Origin: Candidatus Latescibacterota bacterium
GTDB lineage: Bacteria > Latescibacterota > UBA2968 > GCA-2709665
Direction of reading: 5' to 3'
Length of the DNA stretch: 64,000 bases
Assembly (NCBI GenBank): GCA_965237675.1
Contig: OZ250150.1
Coordinates: forward strand, 96,001 to 160,000
In this document: positions 4,640 through 40,241 of the stretch, piece after piece
Position numbering within the stretch: position 1 is the stretch's first letter
How the letters are laid out: the number at the start of each line of letters is the position of its first letter
Translations under genes and position numbers: made by a program
The notes under the pieces: generated by a model
Databases searched by the model: none
What the model was told of the DNA's origin: nothing
The model's input: the letters and a program-made list of their open reading frames with translations, nothing else

Positions 4640-4865
4640 GTGGTTGCCCTCGTCCTGGCGCGCATATTGAAGATTGACTTCGCCACGAAGTAGCGGTAAA
4701 CGGTTATAACTGACGGCTGCGTGCTGCTCTTGATGCGTGACAGATGACCCCGATGAACGATCTCATCGGGGTTTTTCTGTGTCGCACAACGCGCCGATAA
4801 CGTCGCAAAATGCGTCACTTTCTGCTGGGGCCGCATTGACCAACAATGAAGATTTTCGTATATTG
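4640..4865 (+). promoter_or_regulatory. Repeated regulatory module, copy 2 (hsdR promoter)
   Basis: Homologous to 2781-3008; TTGACC(4836)-N17-TATATT(4859). Confidence 0.75.
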
Positions 4866-4932
4866 CGTGCTCTATAGGATAACATATATAGTTCGATCGA
4901 ATTGGGCGAGTTTACGAAATAGGACGTTCGCA

Positions 4933-10844: not shown

Positions 10845-10960
10845 CGGAAGAATGCCCCCACATGAACACCGCTCCCATCATCTCCAAAGTCTGGAGCTTC
10901 TGCACCACCCTGCGCGATGACGGGGTGAGCTATGGCGACTACCTCGAGCAACTCACCTAT

Positions 10961-16499: not shown

Positions 16500-16920
16500 C
16501 TCTTGCAGTCGCAACATCGACAGACATTCGAATTCTCGTCCCGAAAGCTTTGCCTTTCAGTATCCGCAGAACAGAAGGACCTCGGCAAAGTGGCTCAAGC
16601 AACCCAGCTACAAACGTCCTTGTCAGGGAGATAGATTTATGGTCATGAAATCTATCGGTACGGTCAGCCAGTTCTCGGACTCCGTTCGGAAACAAGCTTA
16701 CGAGTGCAAATCACAAACTCATTGAACTCGTCGTCCAGGGCGTTGAATTTCAGGACGGAGACATCAAATCCGCCGCTTAATCCATCAGGATACGCTCGCC
16801 GCCATCCACAACATTTGACAATATCTCTTCGAATCTTGGATGCGCCGCTGGCCTTTAGCAAAACTGGACGCGTAGTTGGTCGCAAACTCGAAACTGGGTT
16901 GTTGATAAGCCAAGTTGGCA

Positions 16921-20115: not shown

Positions 20116-20175
20116 GCCACGGTTAAGGTACCAACGTAAGTGTCAGCGATTCAATTGCAATTCATCGGAGGCATA

Positions 20176-20439
20176 ATGAAGCTCACTAAGGTACGCGTTA
20201 CAGAATTCCAAAGCATCCAGGATTCGACCGAGTTCGACATCGATGATGTCACCTGTCTGGTCGGAAAGAATGAAGCAGGTAAAACCGCGCTTTTGAAGGC
20301 TCTCTACCGGCTAAAACCCATAATTGAAGGAGACGGTCGCATTGATGTGACCGATGACTATCCGAGTCGATCGGTTGTCGACTATGAGTCGGACGTAGCA
20401 ACTGAACGCCGAGAGCCTGCAACAGTAGTTCAGGCCACG
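20176..20439 (+). pseudogene. Truncated N-terminal copy of the OLD-family ATPase
   Basis: MKLTKVRVTEFQSI..LVGKNEAGKTALL parallels 20599 onward; homology stops at ~20439. Confidence 0.85.
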
Positions 20440-20598
20440 CCCTTCCGCCTCGCAGGAGCGTCGCTTGTGGGCGCCCGGCCTCCGGCGGCGGGGCTCCACC
20501 GTAGCAATTCGCGGCATGTCGGCATCTGATTTTTTGCGAATCAAATTCAGTTCCAAAGTAAGTGTGAGCGATTCAATTTGCAATTCATCGGAGGCACA

Positions 20599-22563
20599 GT
20601 GAAACTCTCAAAGATACACATTACTGAATTCCAGAGCATTCTGGATTCTAACGAGTTCGAAGTCGATGTTGTCACATGTCTGGTCGGTAAGAATGAAGCA
20701 GGCAAGACCGCATTATTGAAGGCGTTGTACCGTTTGAATCCCATCGTCGAGGAGGACGGCGAATTTGATGTAGCGCTCGACTATCCACGGCGATCCGTAA
20801 GCGACTACGAGGACGACGTTGAAGCGGAACGCCGAGAGCATGCGCAGGTTGTTCAAGCCACGTTTGTGTTGGAGCCCGACGACGTCACGGCCGTCGAGGA
20901 AGTCTTTGGACCTGGATGTCTAAGAGACGAAATACCAACCTTGATACTCCGCAAAGGATTCTCAAACGAGGTCCAATTCAGCGGCCTGAATGTGGACCGT
21001 GAGGCAGCCATCGAGCACCTTGTCGAGACGGCTGGCCTTCCTCAACCGCTTATCGAACGGTTACTGGATTTGAAGAACGTCGACGCGATGTTGGAGGTTC
21101 TTGCTACTGCCGAGCAGACCGAGTCTGTGATGGAGCTAACGCCCAAGCTTACGGAAATTTCCGAGCAAGGCGTTTCTGACGTCGCCTACAACAGTATTCT
21201 CTATGACCGTATTCCGAGATTTCTTTACTTCGACGAGTATTACCAGATGAAGGGTCAAGACAATGTCGACCTGCTCAAGCAGCGCGCTGCTAGCGGTACC
21301 CTTGAGAATTCCGACTATCCGCTCCTGGGCTTAATAGAGCTTGCAGGTCTCAATCTCGACCAACTCACTGATCCGCATAGGACGGAAACCCTAATCTCAA
21401 GGCTTGAAGCTGCTGAGAACCGGCTCACCGACAAAGTGCTTACCTATTGGTCTCAGAACCGACATCTTAGGATGAAGTTTGACATCCGTCCAGCGCAACC
21501 CGAGGACCCGGAAAATATGACCACGGGGATGAATATCTGGGGACGGGTGCAAGACACCAAACATATGGTGAGCACGGCGCTTAGTACACGTTCCCGTGGC
21601 TTTGTCTGGTTTTTCTCTTTTCTCGCTTGGTATTCGCAGCTACGGAAGAAAGGGGAGAACATCATTCTGCTGTTAGACGAACCAGGCCTCTCTCTTCATG
21701 CAAAAGCTCAGGCAGACCTCCTTCGCTATTTCGAAGAGGATCTCAAACCCCATCACCAACTCATCTACACAACCCATTCACCGTTCATGGTTGATTCCGC
21801 ACATTTTGATCGCGTGCGCATTGTCCAGGACCTGAGCATTGAGTCAAATTTCGATGACCTGCACGATGAGGTCCAAGAAGGAACCAAGGTGATCACCGAG
21901 GTCCTCGACGCAACACCGGATAGTCTGTTTCCTCTTCAGGGTGCCCTTGGTTACGAGATTTATCAGACGCTTTTCATTGGCCCAAACTGCCTGGTTGTCG
22001 AGGGGGTCTCCGACCTTCTATACATTCAGACCATTTCGGCCGTTCTTCAGGGGATTGGTAAGGAAAGCCTGAGTAATGATTGGACTATAACCCCTGTTGG
22101 CGGTTCTGACAAGGTACCAACCTTTGTTGCTCTGATTGGTGCGCAGACCAATTTGAACCTCGCGGTACTTATTGATTACCAGAAGAAAGATAGCCAGAGG
22201 ATCGAAGATCTGTTCAAGAGAAAGCTACTGAAAAAGCAGAATGTCTTCACCTATGCAGACTATGTCCAAGGTTGCGAAGCCGACATCGAGGATATGTTTG
22301 AACCTGAGTTCTATCTGAAGCTGGTGAACCGAACCTATTGCTTATCCGTTTTATTGACGGATCTACCGGGAAATCATCCACGAATCACCCATCAATTAGA
22401 AGAATATCTGCAAGGCAGGCCACTTCCAAACAATGAGAAGTTCAACCACTATCGACCCGCTCGCCACTTTAGCGAAAATATCGGTTGTTTTGAGAGTGAA
22501 TTGAGCGAATCGGTGCTTGGTCGATTCGAGAAAGCCTTCAATAGACTGAACAAACTGTTGTAG
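20599..22563 (+). CDS. OLD-family ABC ATPase + TOPRIM nuclease
   Basis: GKNEAGKT, LLLDEPG, TTHSP; TOPRIM-like VVEGVSD, IDYQKKD, DIEDMF. Confidence 0.85.
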   Translation: MKLSKIHITEFQSILDSNEFEVDVVTCLVGKNEAGKTALLKALYRLNPIVEEDGEFDVALDYPRRSVSDYEDDVEAERREHAQVVQATFVLEPDDVTAVEEVFGPGCLRDEIPTLILRKGFSNEVQFSGLNVDREAAIEHLVETAGLPQPLIERLLDLKNVDAMLEVLATAEQTESVMELTPKLTEISEQGVSDVAYNSILYDRIPRFLYFDEYYQMKGQDNVDLLKQRAASGTLENSDYPLLGLIELAGLNLDQLTDPHRTETLISRLEAAENRLTDKVLTYWSQNRHLRMKFDIRPAQPEDPENMTTGMNIWGRVQDTKHMVSTALSTRSRGFVWFFSFLAWYSQLRKKGENIILLLDEPGLSLHAKAQADLLRYFEEDLKPHHQLIYTTHSPFMVDSAHFDRVRIVQDLSIESNFDDLHDEVQEGTKVITEVLDATPDSLFPLQGALGYEIYQTLFIGPNCLVVEGVSDLLYIQTISAVLQGIGKESLSNDWTITPVGGSDKVPTFVALIGAQTNLNLAVLIDYQKKDSQRIEDLFKRKLLKKQNVFTYADYVQGCEADIEDMFEPEFYLKLVNRTYCLSVLLTDLPGNHPRITHQLEEYLQGRPLPNNEKFNHYRPARHFSENIGCFESELSESVLGRFEKAFNRLNKLL

Positions 22564-23577: not shown

Positions 23578-23715
23578 GTTCTGGATCTAAGGCAATTCGT
23601 GAGGCCTATTCGCGATCTGATCGTGGTCGCCCCGTCCCTATTGATTGTCACGTCGCAGACATTCGACAAATAGACGCTCTCCTAACCAGCAATTGGCCGC
23701 TAATGAAACCGACAA

Positions 23716-23985
23716 ATGGACGCTAACCGTTCCCTGTTTCCCCGCTCGCTGGAACCCGTAATCCGGGAGGCTTTGGTCGACACGCCGGTGGTCTGTCTGC
23801 TCGGACCGCGGCAAAGCGGGAAAACGACGCTCGTGCAGCAGCTCGCGCCCGATCGTGCGTTCGTCAGCTTGGACGAGCATAGCTACTATCAGACCGCCCA
23901 GGCCGATCCGGCCGGTTTCGTCGCCAGCCTGCCGGTGGCAGTGACCCTGGAGCAGTTCGGTCTGGGAAATGTGCGTAGTCTATAG
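23716..23985 (+). pseudogene. AAA_14/DUF4143-type ATPase N-terminal fragment
   Basis: DTPVVCLLGPRQSGKTTL, truncated after ~80 aa. Confidence 0.8.
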
Positions 23986-24175
23986 GACAATCCGCTTTCC
24001 GGTCCGAACCGAGTATCCAGTTTCGTCTCTTTTGCGCTCGGCGAGGTAGTTCAAGTGGAAATTACAAATCGCAAGAGTTAAACTACGTACGTTACCTACG
24101 CCTGCCTACGACTAACGCAGCCAAGGACGAATTCCAATGGCGCGTGTGCCAGTACAACAACTGAAAAAAGGAAGT

Positions 24176-25123
24176 ATGCCGCGTCTCTACAGCCGCCAGC
24201 GCCTGTTACTCGGGTTGCTCGACGCGATTGGCGGAGACATGAGCAATACGGACTTTCAGAAGCTTCTATTTCTCTACTGTAAAGAGCTTTCATCACACGG
24301 GGCAACTCAAGGACTTTACGACTTTGTCCCCTACCATTATGGCGCATTCTCGTTTACCAGCTATGCCGACCGCCGCCGCCTGGTGGATTGGGGGCTGCTT
24401 GTGGATAACGACCAGAAATGGGTCCTAACAGAAAACGGGAGTAATATCGCGGGGAATGCAACAAGCAGCGCGATTCGTTCGTTCGCGTATCGATATCGAA
24501 GCGTGCGAGGGGATGCGCTCGTTGCGGATACCTACCGGCGGTATCCGTATTATGCGATACGCAGTGAAATTGCAGACCAGGTCCTCCAGGACGATCAGCC
24601 GACACTTGATCGGATTGAATCCACTCGCCCTCAAGCAGCACCGTCGCGGCTTTTCACCATCGGTTACGAAGGGCGAACGCTGGAATCTTATCTCAATCTG
24701 CTTATTCGCGAAGGCGCGACCCTATTGTGCGACGTGAGACGGAACGCGATCAGCCGAAAGTACGGCTTCTCGAAGACCACACTTGAACGGGCTTGCTCTG
24801 GAGTAGGAATTCGTTACGAACATCTTCCGGAGCTTGGAATAGCTTCCCGTCGACGCCGAGGTCTCAAGACGGAAGCGGATTTCAAAAACCTTTTCGAGAC
24901 CTATGAACAGAAGATCCTGCCAAATCAAGGCGATGCCTTGGAGAAAATCCGAGCTTGGTTGAGGTCGGGCGAGTCCGTCGCACTCACCTGTTTCGAACTT
25001 CAGGCCGACCAGTGCCATCGTCATTGCGTCGCTAACGCGCTCGAAAAGAAAACCGACCAGGACGATCCTGCAGAACGAGAAGGTCGACCCTTCCTCCCCC
25101 ACGACGGCGTAAAACACCTTTGA
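24176..25123 (+). CDS. DUF488 protein with N-terminal winged-helix-like domain
   Basis: DFQKLLF..FVPYHYGAFS; FTIGYEG, DVRR, YEHLPELG, CFE....CHR. Confidence 0.85.
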   Translation: MPRLYSRQRLLLGLLDAIGGDMSNTDFQKLLFLYCKELSSHGATQGLYDFVPYHYGAFSFTSYADRRRLVDWGLLVDNDQKWVLTENGSNIAGNATSSAIRSFAYRYRSVRGDALVADTYRRYPYYAIRSEIADQVLQDDQPTLDRIESTRPQAAPSRLFTIGYEGRTLESYLNLLIREGATLLCDVRRNAISRKYGFSKTTLERACSGVGIRYEHLPELGIASRRRRGLKTEADFKNLFETYEQKILPNQGDALEKIRAWLRSGESVALTCFELQADQCHRHCVANALEKKTDQDDPAEREGRPFLPHDGVKHL

Positions 25124-25316
25124 CCGACTTCGCCAGGACGTAGTGCTATCCGGTTTTAGCTGACGGCGGAATGTTGCTCGTACTGGCAGACACAAGACCC
25201 CGATTAACAATTCGTCGGGGTCTTTTCTGTGTCGAACAGCGGCCCGAGATCGTCGCAAAATGCGACGCATTTGGCTCACGGGTGAATTGACCGCCAACGT
25301 CGATTTTCATATATTG
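25124..25316 (+). promoter_or_regulatory. Repeated regulatory module, copy 3
   Basis: AAGACCCCGA..TCGGGGTCTT hairpin; CGTCGCA-AAA-TGCGACG; TTGACC(25287)-N17-TATATT(25310). Confidence 0.75.
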
Positions 25317-25669: not shown

Positions 25670-28600
25670 GTGAACGAAGGCACCAACAAAGACCGCTCGC
25701 CCGACGTCGATGTCCGGCGCAAAGCCGGAATTGTCCGAAGCCCGCTCGATGAAATCAAGGCGATCCAGACCCTGTTGGCGGACGTCTATAAGGATGCCGG
25801 AGACGGACGGACGCTGTTCCGGGAGCTCGTTCAGAACGCCGACGACGCCGGCGCACGACGGCTCAGGCTCACGGTGCTGGAGCGCGGCTGGCCCGACGCA
25901 CCTAACAGCCTGCTCCGCGGCCCGGCCCTGCTGGTAGCGAACGACGGGCCGTTCCCTGCCAAGGACCGCGAGGCTTTGCACAAGGCCATCGGCGGATCCA
26001 AAGAGGACGACGCCAGCAAGATCGGAACGTTCGGCATTGGGCTGAAGAGCGTGTTTCATATCTGCGAGGCGTTCATCTACATCGGTGCTGAGAAGTCGGA
26101 GTGGCGGGCAGGTGTTCTAAACCCGTGGGCCGGGACCGGAGAGAGCGGAGAAGCAGACCCTGTTCACCCCGAGTGGGCTGAGGTCGACGAGCGGCTTCAG
26201 GCCGTGGCGACGGAGTTGATCGGGGATACGAGCAGCGGCCTAATGCTATGGATTCCACTGCGGCGTCCTGAGCATTTGGACCGGGGAGTGGATTGTAGTG
26301 AATATGGAGTAGGGCAACGGTGCACCGAGCCAGAAGAACTCTGCGCTTGGTTCGGGAACTCGGCTTCTCCGGCGCTACTGCTGGCGCAGTGCGGGCATCT
26401 CAAATCTATCGAAGTACACCTCACTGTAGGGCCGGAGAGCCTGCATGATCCCCAGAGACTGGCGCGCGTGGATCGGAAAAAAGACGAATGGGTGGGACGA
26501 CATAAAGATGACAGTCACGAACGGACCACGCGACCTTTCGAAGGTACCATTGAATCTGACGAGCGGAGTTGGTACGTCGTCGGAATCGAGGCGCTAGGCG
26601 GTGACAGCTTGCGTAAGATTCGGTCGCAGCCCAATTGGCCGCAATCTCCGCAGTGGTACGACGGTCGCCATTCCACGGTGCCGAGGAAGGCTCTTGCTCA
26701 CGCTGCGATTTCCGTGCTGAGGCCCGATGCTACGAATACCGAGCTCTTGGGAACGCGAATTCGGTGGGCCGTGTTCCTGCCGCTAGACGACGATCCTGAG
26801 CCGCGTTCCAGCGAGATCGTCGAGAGTGCAGGCACCTCTCCTACCTGGGAGATAATACTGCACGGCTACTTCTGGCCGTCCCAAGACCGAAGGTCCATTC
26901 CCGGCGTCACCGATGTTCTTGGCAACCGTGCGGGCGAAACCGACATGCGTAACCGTTGGAATCGCGCAGTTTGCGATGACTTGCTTTTACCGTTGCTGCC
27001 AAGTGCCCTCGCAAGAGCAGTTGACGGGATAGAGGAACGCGTGGCGCGGAGGCTCCTGGATACTGTTGCCAATTCGAAGATCGTTTTGCACCGCTCAGAC
27101 GCGGTGAAGCGCCGACATTGGCTCCTGCCACTGGTTGCTGCCGACGGGGTTCGATGGGAAGTACGGGACCCGAAAGCGTGTCGCGTTCTTTCCATCCCGA
27201 AATGGAGTCGGGCGCCGGTCGTCGTACGCAGGCAGTTCTTGGCCACCTGGGACCAATGCACGGACGATGTGGTGTTCATTGACGACGACGCGCCAGGTCT
27301 CGTAGGCGAAATCGATGATTGGACGGTTGACCACCTCGAACGCCTGCTGAACAGCATTCCGAACGACGCGTTCGCCGCTCCGCAAGACATGAAGTGGATC
27401 GGCCAAATTATCCGCCACGTTCTCGGCGAATACGCCAACGGCGGCGACATTCTCCCTGTCTTGGTTGTTCGCTGGATCGTCGAGAGAATCGGTCAGGGGG
27501 TACTGACCCAAACGACCCGCCGTGTGTCCGACGAATCACAACGCATTGCCCGTGAAGAGTTGAGGTGTGCCTGGAGATACTTGTTGGCAGCACTGCCGAA
27601 CGAGTGGTTGCTGGATGCGCCCTTGGAAAGCCAGCGGGCAGTCGCCGAACTTGCCGCGGAGGGAGTGATTGGCGAGGGGCTCGTCCCGGTCCCATTCGGG
27701 AGCGAATTAGAACCGCTACCTTCTCGGCCCGATCCAAAGCGACTGGATAATGCGTTGTGTGTCCTGGGTCGGCAGCTGGCGGCGGGTGGTGAATCCGAGA
27801 GATTGCGGCACTCCCGGCTTCTCCTTGCCGAGACCCTGCTTTCTATACGAGGCGACAATCTTCCTTTGAACGATTTGGAGACGCTGCCGTTGCTGCGAGT
27901 AACCAGGATGCCGGAGGATCGGGAGGAAGCTTGGTCCGTGTACAAGCTACGCCGCCAGACCAACACCCGCCGGGTGTTCGCCAGCCAGCCTTCCGTCAAG
28001 GACTCGGATGTACATCAACCGGGACGTTTGTCAGATCCAAAACGGGCGGTAGCAGAACTCGCCACAGCAATTTACGAGGACATTTGGATTCTAATTGACG
28101 CTCGAGTAGCAGCCCTTACGGGTACGCCCTCACCCACCCCAGATGCTCTAGCAAGAGCCGTGATTGGAGCAAAGACGTTCCACCCAGAACCCACGCAGCG
28201 CAAGCACTTAGTCGTCCGGCTCGCACGGGATGGAGGCACCCATGTTTGCGCGGTCCGGGCACTGCTTGCCGGCCGTACTACCGCAGAGGTTGGACAGGAC
28301 ACCGAACTCTTCTTTGCACCGCGCCAGTCTGTTCATGAGCAACAGACATTGGATATTCTGCTTCGTCTTCTCTGCCAGTCTTGGCGAGAAGTCAATGTGG
28401 AGTTGGTGGAATCGCTCTCGCACAACCTCGTTCAAGACCTTTCCGTAAGTCGGGCCGATGCCGGCGCATTTCATCGCCTGCTAAATGACTGTCTGAACAA
28501 AACAGTGGACTGGGCTGGGCTCAGCGACGAGGATGTGCTGCATCTGCTCCAACACTTGTACGGCGGGATGGCTGAAGACCAAGAGCGATGGCGTGCAATG

Positions 28601-31600
28601 CCGCTTCATCGTGACGTTGATGGGAAACGCGGCCCGTTTGATGACCGAGCACTGAGGACAGCAGAAGGTTCGAATGAACTGCGGTTGCCACCGGAACTCG
28701 ATATGACGGTGCGTCTTCTGGATCCGGACCCGTCAGTCGCCCATCTCTACGTTTCGGTTCCTGTTATGGACCGTGATGGCATTCTTCAACGGATGTTGGA
28801 GGACTCGCGCCCGTGGCGCTTCGCCGAATGGATAGTGCAAAGTATTCGGTCCGCCGATGGCAAAATGACGCTGCCACAAGACTCCGACCTGCGCGAACGC
28901 CTGAGACACACATGTTGGCTGCCGGTCGGCGATGACGACGGTGTCGCGCCAGAAGCCGTGCTGATCGCCCCGAAGGAATTGCTGCAGGAAGTCGCCGGAC
29001 TCGCCGTGGCCCGTGCTTTCGGCGACAAACGGCTTCCCGAAGAGGTTCATCCGGAGACATGGCAGATCGCTGAACGGGTTGTTCGAGAAATCCTCGGGCG
29101 TTTGAGTCAGGACCGCCAAGTACAGCGGATTGTGGACGCCTTGTATCCCGATCAAGTCGCGCAGGTGAGTGGTGGTGCATATCTGGTCATGACGGATCCC
29201 GAACTCATCGACGCTTCCCTGATCGAGGACGCCCTGAAAACAACCCTCGTCGATAGCCATCTCGGCTGGAAACTTGTGAATACCTTCCAACGTGTTTTGA
29301 GACACAGCGGTGGTGCTGGATCCCGAGATGCTTCAGAACCGCTCCTGAAGTTGGTGAGAGCGCTCTGTGCGCCCGTACCGCCCGTGCATCAGATTACGAT
29401 GCTGAAGGTCCTCGCCCAATCAAGGCCGGTAAGAGAATCACCGGGTGGACACCTGTTCGGCGAACTATTGGACTGCTTCGCAAAGACGGACGAGTTCTTC
29501 AAGTGCGTTCTGTCAAAGATCGAATTGCCGACGCAGGATGGCAATTGGCATACGAGCCGGGACGTCGCGAGATCCGAGTCCGGCGTGGCACTACGGCACC
29601 GACTCATTTACGAACTCCGCTCCAGCCTCAGATTGAACGGTGACCAGCCGGTACCTCAAAGGAGTAATGTTAAAGGCGGTGAGCGTAGAACTGGACCCGA
29701 TGCCCTAAAGGCTCTTGAGAAATACTTCGAATCGTGGCGCGAGCGAGTCTCGCCGAGCGCTGTGGGCGCGTTCCTGAGTCTGTTGGGCGATGGCCTGCGT
29801 GGCAGCACAGCGAACCTTGCCCAGCGATGGCTTGGCGAAGATGTGAGCCTTAAGGACTTGCGTTCAATGTTGGCAGCCGCAAATCGTTCTGTCCCCTTCG
29901 CCGGAGTCAACGTCTCGGTAAAGCCGGATTTCGCGCGGGGTAACCGAGTTATTGCGATGAACGTCGTTGGATCTTGGGTCGAGATGGAGGCCGACGCCGA
30001 TAACGAGAGTCTGTTTGCAGTCGATCCGGTCAATTATCCCCCCTCCAGGCTCTCAGCACTCGCGGAGTTTGGAGGTCCGTTCTGGGAGATCACGCTGCGC
30101 GATGTCGAGCCGCAAACCCGCACACAATCCGATCTCACTGCTTTGCTTGGTAACACCGTCGAGCGGTGGGCCGTCCAATTCCTCAAGCTGGACCGCGAGC
30201 AGGTGAACCATTGGTGGTCTCAATGGGGGACGGGATCCCAAGCAAACCTCGGTCCAGTACTTGCCTCCATCAGGGCGCACCTGCCCTTGACGCTTAGGCA
30301 ACTCGATGTACAGGAACGTGAGCCATTGCGGGATGCCCTCAGAGATGCGGAACAGGCGCAAAGAAAGCGCGAGCAGGCCCATTCAAGACTATCAGAAGCA
30401 ACTCTCAAGGCAGAAAGAGAAATTCTAGACCGCTTGGCGAAGCTCATTGAAGAGCCTGAGCACCAGACGTTCCTGTGGGAGCGGGTCAACGAACTGATGC
30501 GGCGCTACGGCTACGGACCCGAAAGCGTGCTGCTGGAGCTCGCGCAAAATGCCGACGACGCTCTCGCGCAGGCCGCCGAGATCAAGGGTGGTCCGTTGCC
30601 GCCTGCCACTTGCCGCCTCTTGATCCGAGTCTACGAGCATGACTGTACACCTACCTTGGACATTACGCATTGGGGGCGTCCGATCAACGACACTGGAGGC
30701 CCTGCCTTCCCGGAGGGGCGGGAGCGTCAGTGGGATCAGGATCTTTACTTCATGATGCTCATGAATCTGAGCGGCAAGCCCGGCGAAGCACCCGGAAGGG
30801 CTGCGTCGGCCTCGACCACTGGACGCTTCGGCCTCGGCTTCAAGTCCATTCACCTCGTCTCGGAATCCCCATCCGTTGTCAGTGGCTTTATCAACTTTTC
30901 CATTGCCGGCGGATTGCTGCCGCAGGAACGACAGGTCAAGGACGATGCGGATTCGTGGATGGTGGAAGATCGTCGGCCAACCCGCGTCCGGCTACCACTG
31001 CGCCGGGATGTCGATGCGCACACTCTGATCGAACGTCTGTTCCATCGCTTCGCCTACGCACGCGCCCTGTTGCCGGTCTTCGCCCGGCAACTGCGGGAAG
31101 TCGTCGTGGAGGGCGACTCGTTTGCTGGCGTTCACGTCTTTGACGGCAAACCCATTGCCGGTGCGCCAGGGTGGTCGGTCGGTGCCGAAACTGAGCTGCC
31201 CAACCATGAGGGACGTTGGCGGGTACTACGCTTCCGGCCGGCCGACGCGGGACATGAAGGAATGGGCACGGCGGCACTGGCCGTCGGACTCCGGGAGGGC
31301 GTTCCAACACCCTTCGGCCTGGAGATGCCGTTCCTCTGGAATGTCGCCCCCACGAGCGAGAGCTGGGGCTGCGGGTACGCTGTCAACGGTCCCTTCAAGC
31401 TTGACCCCGGCCGAACCCATGTGTCGCTCGATGACGATGCGACCCTTCGGGTGGCTGGCGGCCTCGGTGATGCGCTTGGAAAGGGCTTGATCCAGCTTCA
31501 CGATGCGCTGGTTTGCCGCACGGACGAGGTTCGGAGGCTGTTGGACCACGGGGACAGTCGGAGTTTCCTGACTGCGCTTTGGAAGGTTCTCGCATCCGGC

Positions 31601-33385
31601 TTGAACAACCCGGACGAACTGCGCCGGGAATTCCTACTGCGACTGCACGGGAACGATCGCGGTCTTTCGGCATGGATGGCCGCACGTCCGGCTGTGCCCT
31701 CCGGTCTTCCGGCCCCCTTTACGCCGGTGCTTCCTCCATTGACTACAAATACGCGGCTTGAAGTCGCCGACGGTGGTTTGGCCAACGCGGACTTTTGCTA
31801 TGCCCTTGCAGAAATCAACGACGAAGACTTCGCGGCATTGGTTGATGACCACTGCATAGTGTCGGCGGAAGTGGCGCAACTTCTGGGTCCATTGTGCGGT
31901 ACGGCTGATACCGACAGGAATTACATCGCACCGACGCGACTCCGCCCGTCCAACCTGTTTGCGAAACTGGCTAAACGGTGGGATCACTGCTTGTCGCCGG
32001 AGCGGTTGCATGCGTTGCGGCCACTCGCCAGTAACGAGGCTTGGGGCTTCGTCGAAAGCAATTTTCAAGGCGTAACTTGGCAGGCTCAAGCAGCGGACGG
32101 AAGTCTCCAAGCGCTGCGAAATCTGCTCCTGCGACAACTCCCGAAATCGTTTGATGACACTGATGCGGAGGTAAAGGACGAACTTTCGCGGGCGGCCTTC
32201 GCTCCCGAGGACCGGGTTCTCGATTCGGCGTACATCGAATGCAGCGAAGATTGGCGAGTGTACCGGTGGCTTCGAGTGCAGCATCGCGTCGATGCTACAA
32301 TGATTGCGGATTGGTACACAGGTCTCGCGGAGGACCTTCAACCCGCCGCCGTTTGCTATCTTTTGGATGGAGAATTGCAGGTGCCCGTTCTAACCCATCT
32401 TGTCCCACTCAACACCCGCCCTTCGTGGCTTCAGGAGTACGACCAAGTCTCCGCAGTGCTTGAAGAGCTGGGCGAGGAACCTTGGCGGTGCCAGTCACTT
32501 CTGGGCGCCCTGTTCCCTGACCGGTTCCGTTCTCCAGAGCTACCACAGCCGCCACGCGAGCCCGAGAGGTTTTTCGAGCGCCTATTGGAGTGGTGGGACG
32601 ATGATGCGGAACGCGGCAAAGTCGTTGCCGACTACGAAAGACGCGCTTGGCCAACGTGGCTGAGGAAAGACGGCATAGCGGACGGACTGACAGCTGATTC
32701 GCAAGACCATTGGCTTGCGTTGCTCGTTCTTGGTGCCTGTCAAAGTTTGGGGCGTACCAGAGATGAACAACACCGTCGATTCATCGAGTTGGCTCACGAC
32801 GCGGGTTGGTGGGATGTGTTCAAAGCCCCCGGTGACGACGAGGCTTGGATGAGCGTGCTGCGTGGATGGCAGGACCAAGCGGTCGCCGAAATCGAATACA
32901 GGCTATGGATGTCGCTATTTCCGACAATTTACCAACTCAGTCGGTATCAAGATGTATATGTTCGTCTGCTCAAGTCGGCCGGGCGACGTCCCGATGATTT
33001 GTATCAAGTGACTCGCTTGCTCGCCCCGCGCACCGACGAAGCGCTCACTGGTGCGGGTACTCACTTCGATGCGCCCCCGGCACCCCTCAACATGGGTCTC
33101 CACTGGGTGCTTCGGGAGCTCGTGCGTCTGGGAGTCGTCAATGGAGAACATCTCCATCCGGACTGTTGGGTGCCGTCGGAGCAGGTCCTGGGCTTTCTTC
33201 AGCCTCTCGGTCTGGAGCAGCCTGATGGCGGATTGCCAAACTCCCAGAAGGCGCGCACCATCGCCAATTTCTTGGCGACAGCGTTGGGGACGGAAACTCC
33301 AAATCTCCATCTCGCGTTCGACATACCGCTACGGCACGTGGCCTCGAACGAGGAACTTCGGCGAGAGTTTGGATTGGAGAGATAG
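25670..33385 (+). CDS. 2571-aa protein with two sacsin-like GHKL (HSP90-like) ATPase modules
   Basis: ELVQNADD..NDGPF..IGTFGIGLKSVF near the N-terminus; ELAQNADD..TGRFGLGFKSIH..NGPFKLDPGR at ~30530-31410. Confidence 0.85.
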   Translation: MNEGTNKDRSPDVDVRRKAGIVRSPLDEIKAIQTLLADVYKDAGDGRTLFRELVQNADDAGARRLRLTVLERGWPDAPNSLLRGPALLVANDGPFPAKDREALHKAIGGSKEDDASKIGTFGIGLKSVFHICEAFIYIGAEKSEWRAGVLNPWAGTGESGEADPVHPEWAEVDERLQAVATELIGDTSSGLMLWIPLRRPEHLDRGVDCSEYGVGQRCTEPEELCAWFGNSASPALLLAQCGHLKSIEVHLTVGPESLHDPQRLARVDRKKDEWVGRHKDDSHERTTRPFEGTIESDERSWYVVGIEALGGDSLRKIRSQPNWPQSPQWYDGRHSTVPRKALAHAAISVLRPDATNTELLGTRIRWAVFLPLDDDPEPRSSEIVESAGTSPTWEIILHGYFWPSQDRRSIPGVTDVLGNRAGETDMRNRWNRAVCDDLLLPLLPSALARAVDGIEERVARRLLDTVANSKIVLHRSDAVKRRHWLLPLVAADGVRWEVRDPKACRVLSIPKWSRAPVVVRRQFLATWDQCTDDVVFIDDDAPGLVGEIDDWTVDHLERLLNSIPNDAFAAPQDMKWIGQIIRHVLGEYANGGDILPVLVVRWIVERIGQGVLTQTTRRVSDESQRIAREELRCAWRYLLAALPNEWLLDAPLESQRAVAELAAEGVIGEGLVPVPFGSELEPLPSRPDPKRLDNALCVLGRQLAAGGESERLRHSRLLLAETLLSIRGDNLPLNDLETLPLLRVTRMPEDREEAWSVYKLRRQTNTRRVFASQPSVKDSDVHQPGRLSDPKRAVAELATAIYEDIWILIDARVAALTGTPSPTPDALARAVIGAKTFHPEPTQRKHLVVRLARDGGTHVCAVRALLAGRTTAEVGQDTELFFAPRQSVHEQQTLDILLRLLCQSWREVNVELVESLSHNLVQDLSVSRADAGAFHRLLNDCLNKTVDWAGLSDEDVLHLLQHLYGGMAEDQERWRAMPLHRDVDGKRGPFDDRALRTAEGSNELRLPPELDMTVRLLDPDPSVAHLYVSVPVMDRDGILQRMLEDSRPWRFAEWIVQSIRSADGKMTLPQDSDLRERLRHTCWLPVGDDDGVAPEAVLIAPKELLQEVAGLAVARAFGDKRLPEEVHPETWQIAERVVREILGRLSQDRQVQRIVDALYPDQVAQVSGGAYLVMTDPELIDASLIEDALKTTLVDSHLGWKLVNTFQRVLRHSGGAGSRDASEPLLKLVRALCAPVPPVHQITMLKVLAQSRPVRESPGGHLFGELLDCFAKTDEFFKCVLSKIELPTQDGNWHTSRDVARSESGVALRHRLIYELRSSLRLNGDQPVPQRSNVKGGERRTGPDALKALEKYFESWRERVSPSAVGAFLSLLGDGLRGSTANLAQRWLGEDVSLKDLRSMLAAANRSVPFAGVNVSVKPDFARGNRVIAMNVVGSWVEMEADADNESLFAVDPVNYPPSRLSALAEFGGPFWEITLRDVEPQTRTQSDLTALLGNTVERWAVQFLKLDREQVNHWWSQWGTGSQANLGPVLASIRAHLPLTLRQLDVQEREPLRDALRDAEQAQRKREQAHSRLSEATLKAEREILDRLAKLIEEPEHQTFLWERVNELMRRYGYGPESVLLELAQNADDALAQAAEIKGGPLPPATCRLLIRVYEHDCTPTLDITHWGRPINDTGGPAFPEGRERQWDQDLYFMMLMNLSGKPGEAPGRAASASTTGRFGLGFKSIHLVSESPSVVSGFINFSIAGGLLPQERQVKDDADSWMVEDRRPTRVRLPLRRDVDAHTLIERLFHRFAYARALLPVFARQLREVVVEGDSFAGVHVFDGKPIAGAPGWSVGAETELPNHEGRWRVLRFRPADAGHEGMGTAALAVGLREGVPTPFGLEMPFLWNVAPTSESWGCGYAVNGPFKLDPGRTHVSLDDDATLRVAGGLGDALGKGLIQLHDALVCRTDEVRRLLDHGDSRSFLTALWKVLASGLNNPDELRREFLLRLHGNDRGLSAWMAARPAVPSGLPAPFTPVLPPLTTNTRLEVADGGLANADFCYALAEINDEDFAALVDDHCIVSAEVAQLLGPLCGTADTDRNYIAPTRLRPSNLFAKLAKRWDHCLSPERLHALRPLASNEAWGFVESNFQGVTWQAQAADGSLQALRNLLLRQLPKSFDDTDAEVKDELSRAAFAPEDRVLDSAYIECSEDWRVYRWLRVQHRVDATMIADWYTGLAEDLQPAAVCYLLDGELQVPVLTHLVPLNTRPSWLQEYDQVSAVLEELGEEPWRCQSLLGALFPDRFRSPELPQPPREPERFFERLLEWWDDDAERGKVVADYERRAWPTWLRKDGIADGLTADSQDHWLALLVLGACQSLGRTRDEQHRRFIELAHDAGWWDVFKAPGDDEAWMSVLRGWQDQAVAEIEYRLWMSLFPTIYQLSRYQDVYVRLLKSAGRRPDDLYQVTRLLAPRTDEALTGAGTHFDAPPAPLNMGLHWVLRELVRLGVVNGEHLHPDCWVPSEQVLGFLQPLGLEQPDGGLPNSQKARTIANFLATALGTETPNLHLAFDIPLRHVASNEELRREFGLER

Positions 33386-36084
33386 TGGCACCGTTCAACA
33401 GCGACTCGGCAGTGCGGCATTCCCGGTTCGGTCGCGGGCAAGTGGTGGTGGATCAAGGTGATAGCATGATCGTCCGCTTCGATCATGGGATCGAGGAATG
33501 TCTGACCACCGATCTCGAACTCATCGATAGCCTTACCGACCGCATCGCCACCAAGCGGCTCGACCCTGCGCTAAACGTCGTCGCTCGAGTTCTCGGCGAG
33601 TGCATCCGTTCGGTCAACGACGCCTGGGGCGTGTTTTCGCGATCCCGTATCGCGTTGCTGCCTCACCAGCTTTGGGTTTGCAAGCGAGTGCTCGAATCAT
33701 GGCCCACGCGGTGGCTCGTGGCGGACGATGTGGGGCTTGGCAAGACTATTGAGGCGGGGCTCATCCTCACGCCGCTGCTGTCTTCAGGGCGCGTTCGCCG
33801 TTTGCTCATCCTGGCACCTGCCAGCCTCGTCGAACAGTGGCAGGTGCGGCTGCGAGAAATGTTCGACATCCGGATTTCGATCTACATTGCCGATGCGGAC
33901 AAGGAAACCTCCGACTTCTGGAACACCCACGACCGCGTAATCGCCTCGGCACATACATTGCGGCTCGACACGGGCGGGCGGTGGGATCGTCTGTTGGACG
34001 CCGAGCCCTGGGACCTCGTGCTCGTCGACGAAGCTCATCATATGAACGTGGACGAACATGATGGCCGCACATTGTCATATCAGCTAGTGGAGAATCTGCA
34101 AGAACGGGGAAAGGTACTGTCTTTGGTGCTATTTACCGGTACGCCCCATCGGGGCAAGGACACTGGATTTCTTTCTCTGCTAAAGCTGCTTCGACCCCAA
34201 GACTTCGATCCCGAACAGCCTCTTGAGGAGCAGGTCGAGAAGCTCCGCACCGTCATGATTCGCAATAACAAGCAGTCTGTCACCGACATGACGGGCAAGC
34301 CGATTTTCACCCCGGTACAATCAAGGCGGGAGACGTACGCCTACTCGCCTGAGGAGGCGCGGTTCTACACGAAGCTAACGGAGTTTATCGTGACCGGAAA
34401 AGCCTACGCGGCCGGTCTTGGCTCTCAGGATCGGCGCACGGCGATGTTGGTCCTGATCACCATGCAGAAACTGGCGTCAAGTTCCGTGACAGCCGTGCGG
34501 CGGGCTCTTGCTCGGCGACTCTCCCGGCTGCGGGATGCGAAAGCAAAATTAGAGGAATCCTACGAGGACTTGGCACGGCTAAAAGAATTGCGCACCGAGG
34601 ACGACCCCGCAAATCAAGATGAAATCAGTCAATTGGAAGAGCGTGTGGCGGAGAATCTGCAAGGAGTCGAGCTCAACCCAAACGAAATTCCGGCGCTGGA
34701 GGAATTGTTGGAAGTAGCAAACGAAGTCACCGACGAGACAAAAATCGGCCGTATCCTTCAACTGGTCGATGAGTCGTTCGCCGAAAGGTCCGTGCTCTTC
34801 TTCACAGAGTACAAGGCTACCCAAGCTCTGCTCATGAGTGCGTTGCACAAACGCCACGGCGATGGATGTGTGACCTTCATCAATGGCGATGGCTTCATCG
34901 AAGGTGTGAAGGATGCCAGCGGCAGAATATCAGACCTTAGAGAGGCCCGAGATCTCGCCGCAGCGCGGTTCAATCGGGGAGATGTACGTTTTCTGGTTTC
35001 CACCGAAGCGGCCGGCGAGGGCATCGACCTACAGGAGCATTGCAGTGCCTTGATCCATGTTGACCTGCCATGGAATCCGATGCGCCTGCATCAGCGCGTC
35101 GGCCGGCTGAGCCGCTACGGGCAAACCGAGCCCGTCGACGTGGTGTCCGTAAGAAATCCAGACACCGTAGAGAGCCACATCTGGGACCTCTTGGATGAGA
35201 AGCTGGCGCGTATCAATTTGGCGTTCCAAGGGGTTATGGACGACCCGGAAGACATCCGCCAACTCGTGATAGGGATGGCGTCGCCTCCCGGCATGTTCAC
35301 CAACGTGTTCGCGAACGCCGACCAGTCACTCAGCAGGCAAACGCTCCGCGATTGGTTCGATACCCAAACCGCGACCTTCGGCGGCGAGGACGCTGTGGAC
35401 ACCGTCCGCAGTCTTGTAGGCCATGTCGCCCGTTTCGACTTCGGAGCGGTAGCCGGTCAGATCCCGCAGGTGGACCTGCAGGATCTGGTGCCGTTCTTCA
35501 AAGTGGTCCTTGCTGTTCGGGGTCGGCGCCCCGACCAGACCGCTGATCTTCGCTTGAGCTTCCGACCGCCGGACGAGTGGAAGGACGACTTCACTATCTC
35601 CTCGGTCGATCGGTACGACCTTCTCTTCGCCCGGGAACCGCGACCAAAAGACGGAGAGGATGTCGCGGGGATCGGGCTGCGGGTCGTCGATAGAGCGGTG
35701 CGCGATGCGGTGGACCTTCCCGCAACGTTCGGGGCCATTCGAGGCCTGGATGCGTCGATTTTCGTGTTCGCCGTACGGGATCGGATAACCGGCGCAAGTG
35801 GCCCCATTCGCACTGTTATCGTGGGCGTCCAAGCCCGTACTGACGGTGCATGCACCTTGCTTCACGACTGGGAGTTGATACAGCGCATAAACCCGCTGGC
35901 CGACAAGCCTAGAAGCCCGGTCTTCACGGATGGAAACCCGGCGCAGGACGTCGCGGATCTCATGGCGGCTGCGCGACAGTATGTGGAATCACAGATCAAT
36001 GCACTTGATCTCCCGTTCGAGTTGCCAGCTATCGAGAGCCTCGCCTGTCTCGTGCCTGGGAGACAAATGGACGCTGCACAATAG
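33385..36084 (+). CDS. SNF2-family (RapA/DrmD-like) helicase
   Basis: LLPHQ, ADDVGLGKTIEAG, DEAHH, TGTP, GEGIDLQ, DLPWNP..QRVGR. GTG start overlaps the upstream TAG. Confidence 0.92.
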   Translation: MAPFNSDSAVRHSRFGRGQVVVDQGDSMIVRFDHGIEECLTTDLELIDSLTDRIATKRLDPALNVVARVLGECIRSVNDAWGVFSRSRIALLPHQLWVCKRVLESWPTRWLVADDVGLGKTIEAGLILTPLLSSGRVRRLLILAPASLVEQWQVRLREMFDIRISIYIADADKETSDFWNTHDRVIASAHTLRLDTGGRWDRLLDAEPWDLVLVDEAHHMNVDEHDGRTLSYQLVENLQERGKVLSLVLFTGTPHRGKDTGFLSLLKLLRPQDFDPEQPLEEQVEKLRTVMIRNNKQSVTDMTGKPIFTPVQSRRETYAYSPEEARFYTKLTEFIVTGKAYAAGLGSQDRRTAMLVLITMQKLASSSVTAVRRALARRLSRLRDAKAKLEESYEDLARLKELRTEDDPANQDEISQLEERVAENLQGVELNPNEIPALEELLEVANEVTDETKIGRILQLVDESFAERSVLFFTEYKATQALLMSALHKRHGDGCVTFINGDGFIEGVKDASGRISDLREARDLAAARFNRGDVRFLVSTEAAGEGIDLQEHCSALIHVDLPWNPMRLHQRVGRLSRYGQTEPVDVVSVRNPDTVESHIWDLLDEKLARINLAFQGVMDDPEDIRQLVIGMASPPGMFTNVFANADQSLSRQTLRDWFDTQTATFGGEDAVDTVRSLVGHVARFDFGAVAGQIPQVDLQDLVPFFKVVLAVRGRRPDQTADLRLSFRPPDEWKDDFTISSVDRYDLLFAREPRPKDGEDVAGIGLRVVDRAVRDAVDLPATFGAIRGLDASIFVFAVRDRITGASGPIRTVIVGVQARTDGACTLLHDWELIQRINPLADKPRSPVFTDGNPAQDVADLMAAARQYVESQINALDLPFELPAIESLACLVPGRQMDAAQ

Positions 36085-36447: not shown

Positions 36448-37041
36448 GTGATCCTAGTCGGCCTGGCTAATAGTTGTGAAGTTTGGGGCGATGGCGGGTT
36501 TCCCGCCGGAATGACGGAAGCGGATTTGGGAGTGAAGAGTATTCCGCGCAATCCGCTGCTGTTCGGCATCCTGTACCGCATGGATGCGGTAGAGAGGATC
36601 GGTTCCGGCATACGGCGTATTCGGGATCTGTGCCGTGAACATGGAGTGGCTGAGCCGCTGATCGAAGTGTCAGACTCGTGGGTAACGACAACGTTCCACA
36701 GGCCAACCTCAGAATTGGGAACCCGCACCGGGCTAAAGCAAGAGTCAGGCAAGAGTCAGGCAAGAGTCAGGCAAGAGTCAAAGCAGGAATCGAGGGCAGA
36801 GGGCGTAGAACAACGAGTACTATCGATTCTCCGACAAACTCCCCTGTCCAGATCCGAGATCTCAATCGGTTTGGGCCACAAATCCATTTCGGGCCGGCTC
36901 AACGAGGCGATTCGCCTCTTGATGGATGACAAGCTGATCGAATACACAATTCCAGAAAAACCCAACAGTCGGTTGCAGAAATACAGACTCACCGAAAACG
37001 GCAAGAGTCGACTGGCAGAATCGGAAGAAGGGCGATCATGA
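36448..37041 (+). pseudogene. C-terminal fragment of an HATPase_c_4 + HTH protein (homolog of 9257-10844)
   Basis: PRNPLL..ERIGSGIRRI; IEYTIPEKPNSRLQKYRLT; N-terminus missing. Confidence 0.75.
36739..36783 (+). repeat. 11-bp tandem repeat
   Basis: CAAGAGTCAGG x3 plus CAAGAGTCAAAG. Confidence 0.85.
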
Positions 37042-37477
37042 AACCAATCACCTGCACTGGGGAAAGCTCCTCATGGTCGCCGACGTAAATCATCTCTCAT
37101 TCGTTCCTCGGGTGAGCGGATGCACGCAAATCGTTGGCAGGAAATCTGCCGAACTGACTTCACGGTCACGCGGGAAGCGATAGGATCTCGGGATCGTCTC
37201 GCGTTTGACCAGAATGACCTCCGCATCGGCAACCGAATGACCCTTCTTGACGATGAGATCCTGGAAGACCTCCGCGATAACCAGCCTGGAGTTTGGGCTG
37301 GTACGGAAGGTCGCCTCAAGGCGAAAAACGATAAGTGGAATCGTAAATGACGCACGGTCCGAATCCGACCTCTTCTGCCACACTTACAGGTTTCGTTGCT
37401 CCATGTGAGACTCCGAGACACGGTCATTTCGGGGTCTCTTGCAATTTCAGGGGCAAAATGACTATCATACGTGACCT

Positions 37478-37652
37478 TGCTTGCATACGGTAAAGCGTTA
37501 GAATTCCCCCACCGCATCAGCCGTCGCCTGCCCTTCGACAGGCTCAGGACAGGGCTCAGGGCAGCGCCTTCGACACCCTTCGACAAGCTCAGGGCACGTG
37601 CTCAGGGACAGGCTCGGCTTCTGCGACTCCCCCTCCAGGGGGGAGTGATTGC
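37478..37652. repeat. Dispersed intergenic repeat, copy A
   Basis: TGCTTGCATA..CCCCACCG.ATCAGCCGTCGCCTG..CCTTCGACAGGCTCAGG..CCCCTC..GGGGGAGTGATTGC; matches 40072-40241. Confidence 0.75.
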
Positions 37653-39393: not shown

Positions 39394-39589
39394 CAGGTGA
39401 AACGCTGATTGCTTTCGCCGTTGCGGTAAACGAGGTTATGCCGGCACGCCGCGTCGTGGTCAGCCGGAGGCGACGTAGACAGACTCTTTTCTTGATCTTG
39501 GCGCCCCGATCCTATAGATTGCCATGTCGCAGCCATTCGACAAATGGACGCTCTATTAACCGGCAATTGGACGCTAATGAAACCGACAA

Positions 39590-39694
39590 TTGGACGCTTA
39601 TTGTTCCCTATACATCCGCTCGCTGCCGCCAGTAATCCGGGAGGCTTTGGTCGACACGCCGGTGGTCTGTCTGCTCGGACCGCGGCAAAGCGGG
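39590..39694 (+). pseudogene. Second AAA_14-type ATPase fragment
   Basis: VIREALVDTPVVCLLGPRQSG; identical DNA core to 23758-23820. Confidence 0.75.
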
Positions 39695-40031: not shown

Positions 40032-40071
40032 GGAAAGCCTAAACGCAAAAACCACGAATAATGCCTCACGA

Positions 40072-40241
40072 TGCTTGCATATCGTAAGGCATTAAAATCC
40101 CCCCACCGTATCAGCCGTCGCCTGCCTGTGCGTTGCACGCAGACAGGCCGACCCTTCGACACCCTTCGACAGGCTCAGGGCAAGTGCGCAGGGAACGGGC
40201 TCGGCTTCTGCGACTTTCCCCCTCAAGGGGGGAGTGATTGC
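40072..40241. repeat. Dispersed intergenic repeat, copy B
   Basis: Matches 37478-37652. Confidence 0.75.

Follow-up and report, generated by a model that had tools for sequence, protein, structure and literature searches.

Locus architecture

The window analysed here, a 64,000-nucleotide (nt) stretch of a Candidatus Latescibacterota genome (GenBank assembly GCA_965237675.1, contig OZ250150.1, positions 96,001 to 160,000, forward strand), contains two adjacent genes, P0001 and P0002, encoding a 2571-residue giant protein and an 899-residue SNF2 protein (Table 1). The pair encodes a giant with two Hsp90/sacsin-type GHL ATPase modules and a RapA/DrmD-type SNF2 ATPase, always adjacent, and is probably an unnamed bacterial defence module, widespread and horizontally moving, that lies here in a defence island. 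Both open reading frames (ORFs) translate without internal stops, and the TAG stop of the giant gene (33383-33385) has one base in common with the GTG start of the SNF2 gene (33385-33387), ...GAGAGATAGTGGCAC, as an initial annotation made from the bare sequence had read. The assigned start of the giant ORF is supported because its homologs begin at the same position, with the consensus MNEG.... The giant gene is present as a single copy in the genome.

The pair as a conserved unit

The two genes constitute one conserved, coupled unit whose proteins co-diverge. Homologous loci were gathered from a metagenome scan (63 loci) and from a genome scan with a single protein as the query (2 loci), and a locus was taken as informative when its giant gene is complete to the C-terminus with sequence beyond. 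In all 20 informative loci, the SNF2 gene lies directly 3' of the giant gene on the same strand with a gap of 0-400 nt; about 17 of these loci are distinct, because L018/L019, L020/L021 and L023/L025 score alike. The remaining 45 are uninformative, being cut by contig ends or having only the GHKL stretch in common. Five of the 20 are distant, with identities of 25-30% for the giant and 46-51% for the SNF2 protein. Both ORFs can be called in 15 loci; they overlap or abut in 13 of these, and in the other two the giant is read in two frames. Among plasmids, five records hold an SNF2 relative at E <= 1e-60, and in each of the five a colinear homolog of the giant lies immediately 5' of it (four of the five were checked by annotation and tblastn, with one of the two Trichormus records examined). 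Both sets bear out the coupling of the two genes that the initial annotation had read from this one locus.

Pairwise identities of the two proteins are closely correlated (r = 0.987, 91 pairs from 14 loci), a value reached by 0 of 2000 Mantel permutations, with the SNF2 protein on average 22 points more conserved than the giant over these loci. A word-indexed search returned 335 giant homologs, and 101 of the best 120 measure 2500-2720 aa at 54-90% identity. A profile of the C-terminal half of the giant matches 2863 cluster representatives at E <= 1e-3, of which 979 stay at a limit of E <= 1e-30; among its best 150 matches, 105 are at least 2300 aa long. The best 120 homologs of the SNF2 protein are 870-911 aa in length and 78-91% identical, and public records label its close relatives 'DEAD/DEAH box helicase'. 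Among the plasmids, two Deinococcus megaplasmids encode the giant homolog as a single ORF (2456 and 2466 aa), Trichormus variabilis plasmid C (L081) as two ORFs (828+1853 aa) and Sphingomonas pC33 (L083) likewise as two (1607+799 aa), the last in a cassette between two IS3 copies that also includes an AAA ATPase and a RecD-like helicase.

No methylase, nuclease or other third gene is conserved with the pair. When the ORFs flanking the pair in 26 loci and in the window are clustered, groups form only among near-identical loci and yield no conserved third gene, in keeping with the initial view of a two-gene machine. Among the 132 ORFs of the flanks, no single Pfam family is shared by more than three, no PADLOC model is matched by more than two, and a DNA methylase occurs once. 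Nucleases stand beside the pair in three of seven loci and all differ (PLD-like, HNH/DUF222 and GmrSD). The DUF488 gene upstream of the pair (PDC-M19A) was rejected as a third component, with no counterpart in the flanks of the other loci. No methylase follows the pair in the window, as initially stated: a truncated HATPase_c_4/Fic-like_C ORF comes next, then ordinary genes, namely one for a class-V aminotransferase and an operon for RND efflux, and hsdM of the type I system (12668-14041) is the one methylase gene of the window.

Two unlike ATPase modules in the giant

The N-boxes of the giant, ELVQNADD (residues 52-59) and ELAQNADD (residues 1623-1630), lie 1571 residues apart and are each accompanied by a G-box, GTFGIGLKS (119-127) and GRFGLGFKS (1718-1726). 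None of the four boxes varies in any of the 18 aligned homologs, whose identity reaches as low as 22%. In this 18-row alignment the invariant residues are E52-Q55-N56-D58-D59 and E1623-Q1626-N1627-D1629-D1630 in the N-boxes, and G119-F121-G122-G124-K126-S127 and G1718-G1721-G1723-K1725-S1726 in the G-boxes. Motif II is NDGxF in module 1, with the Asp present in 16 of 18 sequences, and HxGRxIN instead of DxGxG in module 2, in 18 of 18. The initial description of two complete GHKL modules about 1570 residues apart stands for the N- and G-boxes and fails for motif II of module 2.

Profile searches place both modules close to sacsin. SACS (PF25794), the sole Pfam family in the giant, matches three stretches, NCBIfam P_loop_sacsin (the sacsin N-terminal ATP-binding domain) matches two (107 bits vs a cut-off of 50), and seven PADLOC TmtA models match both GHKL modules (best E 7.8e-24), aligning only to residues about 30-135 of their 1300-1650 model positions. 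All of these matches fall within modules 1 and 2. Comparison of residues 1-1571 with residues 1572-2571 by hhalign, using the 18-row alignment, finds about 100 GHKL residues alike at 96% probability; a duplication of the whole half was rejected, as the halves are not detectably alike beyond this stretch.

Models of the giant were built with AlphaFold2 (AF2) from 15-row alignments. The model of residues 1-1200, with a predicted local distance difference test score (pLDDT) of 79.5, retrieves the sacsin SR1 repeat first in a Foldseek search of the PDB (5v44 and 5v46; target template modelling score 0.63-0.66), followed by TRAP1, GRP94, MORC2 and GyrB; MORC2 (rank 12), MORC3 and MORC4 are all among the matches, below sacsin and TRAP1. 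The model of residues 1572-2571 (pLDDT 80.5) best matches Hsp90, TRAP1 and Hsc82 over their N and middle domains. Sequence profiles and fold thus agree on the likeness to sacsin that the initial annotation had noted. Foldseek results for both large models are dominated by the GHKL part, so the fold matches speak for GHKL only.

The remaining body of the giant

Outside the two modules, the giant consists of a large alpha/beta region, a mainly helical region and an all-helical C-terminal domain (Table 1). The secondary structure of the 431-1571 region is read from the AF2 model, which extends through residue 1200; few polar residues are invariant here (R844 and H980). DxGR (1912-1915) is invariant in the transducer-like part of module 2. 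The C-terminal domain is modelled with pLDDT values mostly of 85-95 and is the best-conserved stretch outside the ATPase modules by conservation profile, with 32-36% identity to the plasmid homologs as against about 25-28% elsewhere. It contains 12 Trp in 273 residues (4.4% vs 2.8% overall), a modest enrichment for what had been called a Trp-rich C-terminus, and it occurs in shorter proteins only as fragments of the same giant family.

Pfam searches at E <= 5 on seven pieces of the giant return sub-threshold noise only, including a winged-helix match in 431-1571. A PDB sequence profile of residues 1950-2571 matches designed proteins only (E 0.3-2.9), and ESM Atlas scores for residues 1921-2571 and 431-1571 are 0.75-0.79, below the useful level. 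The invariant residues of the C-terminal part are mostly W, P, G, R and Y, the acidic ones being E2483 and D2551 only, and no acidic/lysine or histidine constellation typical of nucleases is conserved across the 18 sequences. The initial failure to recognise a nuclease motif is upheld by Pfam, the PDB sequence profile and the 18-row alignment alike: no nuclease is recognisable in the giant, which is absence of evidence at the sequence level.

The SNF2 partner and its relation to DISARM

Pfam detects SNF2-rel_dom, Helicase_C and ResIII in P0002, and the motifs GLGKT (117-121) and DEAHH (215-219) are invariant in 18 SNF2 sequences. The PADLOC DrmD model PDLC02634 fits the protein over its full length (E 6e-293), aligning residues 4-893 with positions 5-897 of the 900 in the model, and the other matching PADLOC models (further DrmD, BrxHI/II, HmaA and DpdE) cover the SNF2 core only, HmaA at 214 bits ranking under the DrmD and BrxH models. 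Scores against NCBIfam are 293 bits for DISARM_DrmD (cut-off 610), 161 bits for DISARM_DrmD_b (cut-off 950) and, as the second-best match, 176 bits for RapA (cut-off 576). P0002 is thus an SNF2 ATPase of the RapA/DrmD type. RapA/BrxHII-type proteins combine an SNF2 core with an N-terminal Tudor domain and C-terminal alpha+beta domains; in P0002 the core is recognised by Pfam, by NCBIfam and by its nearest solved structure, and the terminal regions have no Pfam match.

Invariant residues of its small N-terminal domain are H12, G16, G18, V20 and F32. According to the text of PMC12839542, a Tudor domain occupies the corresponding N-terminal place in BrxHII and RapA, and by analogy residues 1-85 may adopt a Tudor-like fold. 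Mean identity of homologs to the window protein is 0.6-0.87 along most of the chain, then 0.38-0.53 past residue 700.

PADLOC has no entry for the pair as a system. The initial claim that the system is unnamed holds in this respect and not for the helicase, which is already catalogued as the DrmD model PDLC02634. DrmD is the helicase of class 1 DISARM, reportedly described by Ofir and colleagues in 2018, and the window protein resembles it in being an SNF2 ATPase and in size (about 900-1000 aa). Trichormus variabilis plasmid C carries a diverged pair that has drmA, a DUF1998 gene, drmC and a cytosine methyltransferase at a distance of about 5 kb, with two methyltransferases beside the pair. 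This arrangement is plausibly the reason for the PADLOC name DrmD on this SNF2 subfamily. The plasmid arrangement and the end-to-end model match would both fit a remnant or minimal class 1 DISARM in which DrmD was kept and the other genes were lost or are encoded elsewhere.

That origin is highly improbable. The pair stands here without DrmA, DrmB, DrmC or DrmMI: neither DrmA/DrmB (DUF1998/MZB) nor DrmC is found among the window ORFs, and the whole 99.9%-complete genome has no PF09369 (MZB/DUF1998) match, in a search whose control was positive in 8 of 14 known genomes. The initial observation that the other DISARM genes are missing from the window thereby extends to the genome. Searching 45 loci and the window by tblastn with the Trichormus DrmA, DrmB, DrmC and methyltransferase recovered one 101-residue DUF1998 fragment (L084). 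The constant partner of the helicase is the giant GHL ATPase, which is no DISARM component. Because no DrmA, DrmB or DrmC is found and the NCBIfam DrmD score lies under its cut-off, we do not regard the pair as DISARM.

Relation to Tiamat, sacsin and other ATPase-helicase systems

Tiamat (TmtA) was reportedly described by Millman and colleagues in 2022. The text of a preprint presents Tiamat as an experimentally shown anti-phage ATPase whose relatives adjoin helicases, and groups Tiamat, Tiamat-like proteins and sacsin in one clade with helicase neighbours that include Swi/Snf (bioRxiv 10.64898/2026.09.30.754977). The giant shares with Tiamat an N-terminal Hsp90/sacsin-clade GHL ATPase with an ExxQNADD-type N-box, a very large and mostly unassigned body, an adjoining helicase gene and a patchy distribution. 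It differs in having two ATPase modules per chain and about 1000 additional residues, and its partner is a RapA/DrmD-type SNF2 protein without a fused nuclease and with no methyltransferase.

The clade and the TmtA matches to both modules would be expected if the giant were a duplicated protein working like the Tiamat of B. cereus (an ATPase plus a PD-(D/E)xK DNase) and supplied by the helicase with single-stranded DNA. We consider this improbable. The TmtA models are confined to the short stretch given above, and the giant has no Pfam match to DUF3684 or to NOV_C/DUF3883, the PD-(D/E)xK domain (whole protein E <= 0.1, pieces E <= 5). Its C-terminal domain lacks a conserved acidic/lysine constellation and any PDB sequence relative, and where the preprint text mentions ATPase domains in tandem, it does so solely for eukaryotic proteins of the SACSIN type (bioRxiv 10.64898/2026.09.30.754977). 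Because neither DUF3684 nor a NOV_C nuclease is detected, the pair is not taken as Tiamat proper. The initial annotation had also called the system undescribed, which needs qualification for the ATPase, since it belongs to the sacsin/Tiamat clade and bacterial members are reported beside helicases in the text of that preprint.

Sacsin likewise has tandem Hsp90-like (SRR) ATPase repeats followed by a long body, and its hidden Markov models match both modules of the giant. The giant differs in its two modules vs three repeats, in halves that are alike only over the GHKL residues, in its bacterial origin and in its coupling to an SNF2 gene. The UBL, DnaJ and HEPN domains of sacsin have no Pfam match in the giant, whole or in pieces.

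MORC-type and paraMORC GHKL ATPases are described with SF2 helicases, including SWI2/SNF2 members, in operons resembling restriction-modification (R-M) systems, for which the text proposes manipulation of DNA superstructure (Iyer, Abhiman and Aravind 2008, PMC2292703). The likeness as set out there is a GHKL ATPase with a transducer-type domain adjoining a SWI2/SNF2 helicase gene, together with lateral spread (PMC2292703). The present system is distinguished by an ATPase of sacsin/Hsp90 type with tandem modules, and by the lack of a conserved HNH/EcoRII-like nuclease or methylase. A GHL ATPase beside an SF2 helicase in conflict systems is a theme already known from the texts of both sources (PMC2292703; bioRxiv 10.64898/2026.09.30.754977). 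A bacterial tandem sacsin-type giant strictly coupled to a DrmD-like SNF2 protein, with neither nuclease nor methylase, was not found in the literature searched, which takes in parts of the text of the preprint; members of this family may be listed in its supplementary tables.

RapA, BrxHII of BREX type 3 and HmaA of the Hma/'BR' system belong to the same SNF2 subfamily as the window protein by profile and nearest solved structure, and have a similar length, a small N-terminal domain and a C-terminal extension. RapA acts with RNA polymerase, and BrxHII and HmaA act with methyltransferase-based systems that have PglZ/BrxC or DUF499 ATPases, as described in the text of PMC12839542. Beside the pair, PglZ/BrxC, a DUF499 ATPase and a methyltransferase are missing; in the window, neither DUF499 (HmaC) nor a methylase (HmaB) lies next to it. 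Hma was rejected as a precedent for a GHKL-plus-SNF2 system, HmaC being a DUF499 AAA+ ATPase and not GHKL according to the same text (PMC12839542).

Distribution

Of the 168 genomes of the phylum, this one alone has the full-length giant gene; the other 14 matches there are local GHKL matches of 33 bits or less, and the gene is in none of the other 13 species of the genus that were searched. In another class, that of carrier G168, a close SNF2 relative occurs in 1 of 400 sampled genomes, G168 itself. Close relatives are named from Gammaproteobacteria, Gemmatimonadota (Palauibacter), Opitutales, Acidobacteriota and Alphaproteobacteria, and more distant ones are located on plasmids of Trichormus, Deinococcus and Sphingomonas. 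Neighbours at the plasmid loci include DISARM genes, methyltransferases, HEPN, HicB, WYL/RecB-like, CHAT-TPR, HNH and GIY-YIG genes and insertion sequence (IS) elements. Judged from these occurrences, the pair is a laterally moving accessory cassette, because its distribution is patchy, its relatives span at least five phyla and several copies are on plasmids.

Further loci of the window's phylum (L005-L016) contain ORFs of about 1030-1100 and about 1520-1560 aa that have only a GHKL stretch in common with module 1 or module 2 of the giant (17-33 bits). These single-module sacsin-type ATPases might resemble the building blocks of the giant.

A candidate nucleic acid interference module

We favour the reading that the pair is a two-gene, ATP-driven defence or interference module acting on nucleic acids, at a probability of roughly 0.55. 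In its favour are the strict pairing of the genes, the invariant ATPase motifs of both proteins, as expected of active enzymes, the patchy distribution across phyla, the defence genes near the pair here and on the plasmids, and the kinship with Tiamat and with the MORC-type operons. The two proteins would form a complex acting on phage or plasmid nucleic acid, in which the SNF2 subunit would provide ATP-driven movement along duplex DNA and the giant an ATP-gated clamp or scaffold. By closing together, either inside a single chain or across separate chains, the two GHKL heads of the giant could trap DNA or a foreign ligand within its large body of helical and alpha/beta regions. With no conserved nuclease site in either protein, interference would proceed by trapping, compacting or stripping the invader DNA or its transcription/replication complexes, or else a host nuclease, or a variable neighbouring one, would be recruited. 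Self would be told from non-self by means other than a dedicated methylase. GHKL heads of Hsp90, MutL, type II topoisomerases and MORC work as dimers; the two unlike heads in one chain and the natural split forms suggest an intramolecular pair or a dimer of giants. A more specific version, in which a nuclease- and methylase-free immune machine clamps invader DNA or a replication-transcription complex between unlike GHKL heads of a single chain, one canonical and one with the HxGRxIN nucleotide pocket, before the SNF2 protein reels, compacts or evicts it, is speculative and rather unlikely.

Several points weigh against the defence reading. Module 2 is without the usual adenine-contacting Asp of the canonical GHKL motif II and may therefore not hydrolyse ATP in the standard manner. 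The only conserved catalytic-type motifs of the giant across the 18 sequences are its two ATPase sites, and no effector is visible among them. RapA, a housekeeping RNA-polymerase recycling factor, is the nearest solved relative of the SNF2 protein (E 8e-34). We infer the defence role from context, and this context is mixed: only two of the 10 ORFs nearest the pair in seven other loci match a PADLOC model, and five of the 10 have no Pfam family. By Pfam, a nuclease of the PLD-like kind, an HNH/DUF222 protein, a protein resembling GmrSD and an M78 peptidase are among them. The flanks also contain carbamoyltransferase, acyl-CoA dehydrogenase, MFS, LysR and signal peptidase genes, with housekeeping genes common further out. 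A scan of viral contigs with an alignment query gave 100 candidate stretches, of which 0 were confirmed, and the pair was not found there.

Much of this would also fit a non-defence machine on mobile or transferred DNA. The SNF2 protein could be a remodeller like RapA, removing stalled RNA polymerase or other protein-DNA complexes, with the giant as an Hsp90/sacsin-like chaperone or scaffold, or the pair could function in plasmid or island maintenance. The closeness to RapA in structure and as the second-best NCBIfam match, the chaperone nature of sacsin and Hsp90 as the closest folds of the ATPase modules, the lack of a nuclease or methylase and the many ordinary flanking genes all favour such a role, which is possible though clearly the less likely of the two. 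A housekeeping function fits poorly with the single carriers in the phylum and class samples and the genus search, with relatives in several phyla and with the defence island here, and the RapA score falls far short of its NCBIfam cut-off. The probability beyond the four readings, namely defence, non-defence, strict Tiamat and DISARM remnant, is assigned to none.

The family is a large and strictly syntenic pair, yet it has neither a name nor an assigned role. If it is defensive, a GHL ATPase and an SNF2 motor would stop an invader without a visible nuclease or self-marking methylase, and the catalogue label would call for correction, as the PADLOC 'DrmD' model PDLC02634 describes the partner of the giant. 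Were the nuclease-free clamp machine real, it would be a bacterial counterpart of eukaryotic MORC-plus-SNF2 silencing, and a prokaryotic case of a tandem architecture so far described only for sacsin would bear on the origin of sacsin. A bacterial protein with tandem sacsin-type modules can serve studies of sacsin, Tiamat and NO VEIN, and the split forms on plasmids, divided at two different places, provide ready domain boundaries for biochemistry.

Upstream module and surrounding island

In the window, the pair follows a type I R-M operon, an fn3/cadherin protein gene, a SIR2-APAZ-pAgo fusion, an OLD-like ATPase gene and the DUF488 gene (Table 1).

Table 1. Positions of the two genes, their predicted protein regions and the surrounding features in the window
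Feature	Position	Strand	Description
Giant gene P0001	25670..33385	+	GTG start, 2571 aa, tandem sacsin-like GHL ATPase, intact ORF
Giant residues 1-430	25670..26959	+	Conserved N-terminal strap, GHKL module 1 (ExxQNADD, NDGxF, GxFGxGxKS), beta-rich transducer-like part
Giant residues 431-1571	26960..30382	+	Alpha/beta region of many small helix-strand units, no family
Giant residues 1572-1935	30383..31474	+	Helical strap, GHKL module 2 (ExxQNADDA, HxGRxIN, TGxFGLGFKS), transducer-like part
Giant residues 1936-2298	31475..32563	+	Mainly helical, no Pfam family, ending in a low-confidence linker (about 2286-2298)
Giant residues 2299-2571	32564..33382	+	All-helical, Trp-rich C-terminal domain, no family
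SNF2 ATPase gene P0002	33385..36084	+	GTG start, 899 aa
SNF2 residues 1-85	33385..33639	+	Small N-terminal domain, no Pfam family
SNF2 residues 621-899	35245..36081	+	C-terminal region, no Pfam family, least conserved part
Repeated intergenic module, 5' of pair	25088..25316	+	Hairpin with T-run, palindrome GTCGCAAAATGCGAC, promoter-like site
Terminator-like hairpin with T-run	about 25195-25232		In upstream module
Promoter-like TTGACC-17-TATATT	25287-25315		In upstream module, match 10/12
hsdR copy with middle deleted	2971-3273		About 300 nt: first 205 nt (86%) and last 98 nt (81%) of hsdR
Type I R-M operon hsdR, hsdS, hsdM	4846-14041
SIR2-APAZ-pAgo fusion	16915-20115		1066 aa, single chain; PADLOC pAgo E = 0, Aga_SIR2 E 5e-198
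Copy of OLD-like ATPase N-terminus	20140-20529		129 aa; 285-nt direct repeat, 75% identical
OLD/GajA/AriA-like ABC ATPase	20578-22563		661 aa
AAA_14 gene fragment	23716-23985
DUF488 protein	24137-25123		328 aa; PADLOC candidate PDC-M19A, nearly whole length, E 3e-101
Second Fic-like_C/HATPase_c_4 copy, truncated	36448-37041		Just after the pair

The repeated promoter module that the initial annotation placed upstream of the pair is real. Its unit of about 230 nt has three copies in the window (2779-3008, about 4638-4870 and 25088-25316), which align with a mean column identity of 83% and stand 5' of the hsdR remnant, the hsdR gene and the giant gene, respectively. The genome holds three full copies, all within the island, plus one partial copy elsewhere. 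The DUF488 gene, the immediate 5' neighbour of the pair, ends at 25123, and the hairpin of the module then follows. The palindrome GTCGCAAAATGCGAC is 15 nt long and could act as a common operator through which the pair is regulated together with the type I R-M genes. The 350-nt leader after the module is not conserved in other loci, and a conserved leader or small ORF was rejected as a component of the system, the 440 nt 5' of the giant gene matching nothing in other loci.

An inserted Fic-like_C/HATPase_c_4 gene and a DDE transposase (IS) separate hsdS and hsdM. For the SIR2-APAZ-pAgo fusion, Pfam alone detects SIR2_2 only. The copy of the OLD-like ATPase N-terminus looks like a partial duplication or gene remnant. 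Together with the hsdR remnant, the AAA_14 fragment, the truncated ORF after the pair and the IS between hsdS and hsdM, it makes the initial phrase 'amid many pseudogenes' partly true. The window contains no tRNA genes. Direct repeats of 193 nt (88% identical, 23628-23820 and 39502-39694) bracket 15.9 kb with the DUF488 gene, the pair and the aminotransferase gene, a second repeat pair lies at 37464-37608 and 40058-40194, and more repeats of 49-69 nt are present before the efflux operon. These direct repeats may be island boundaries or duplicated regulatory DNA.

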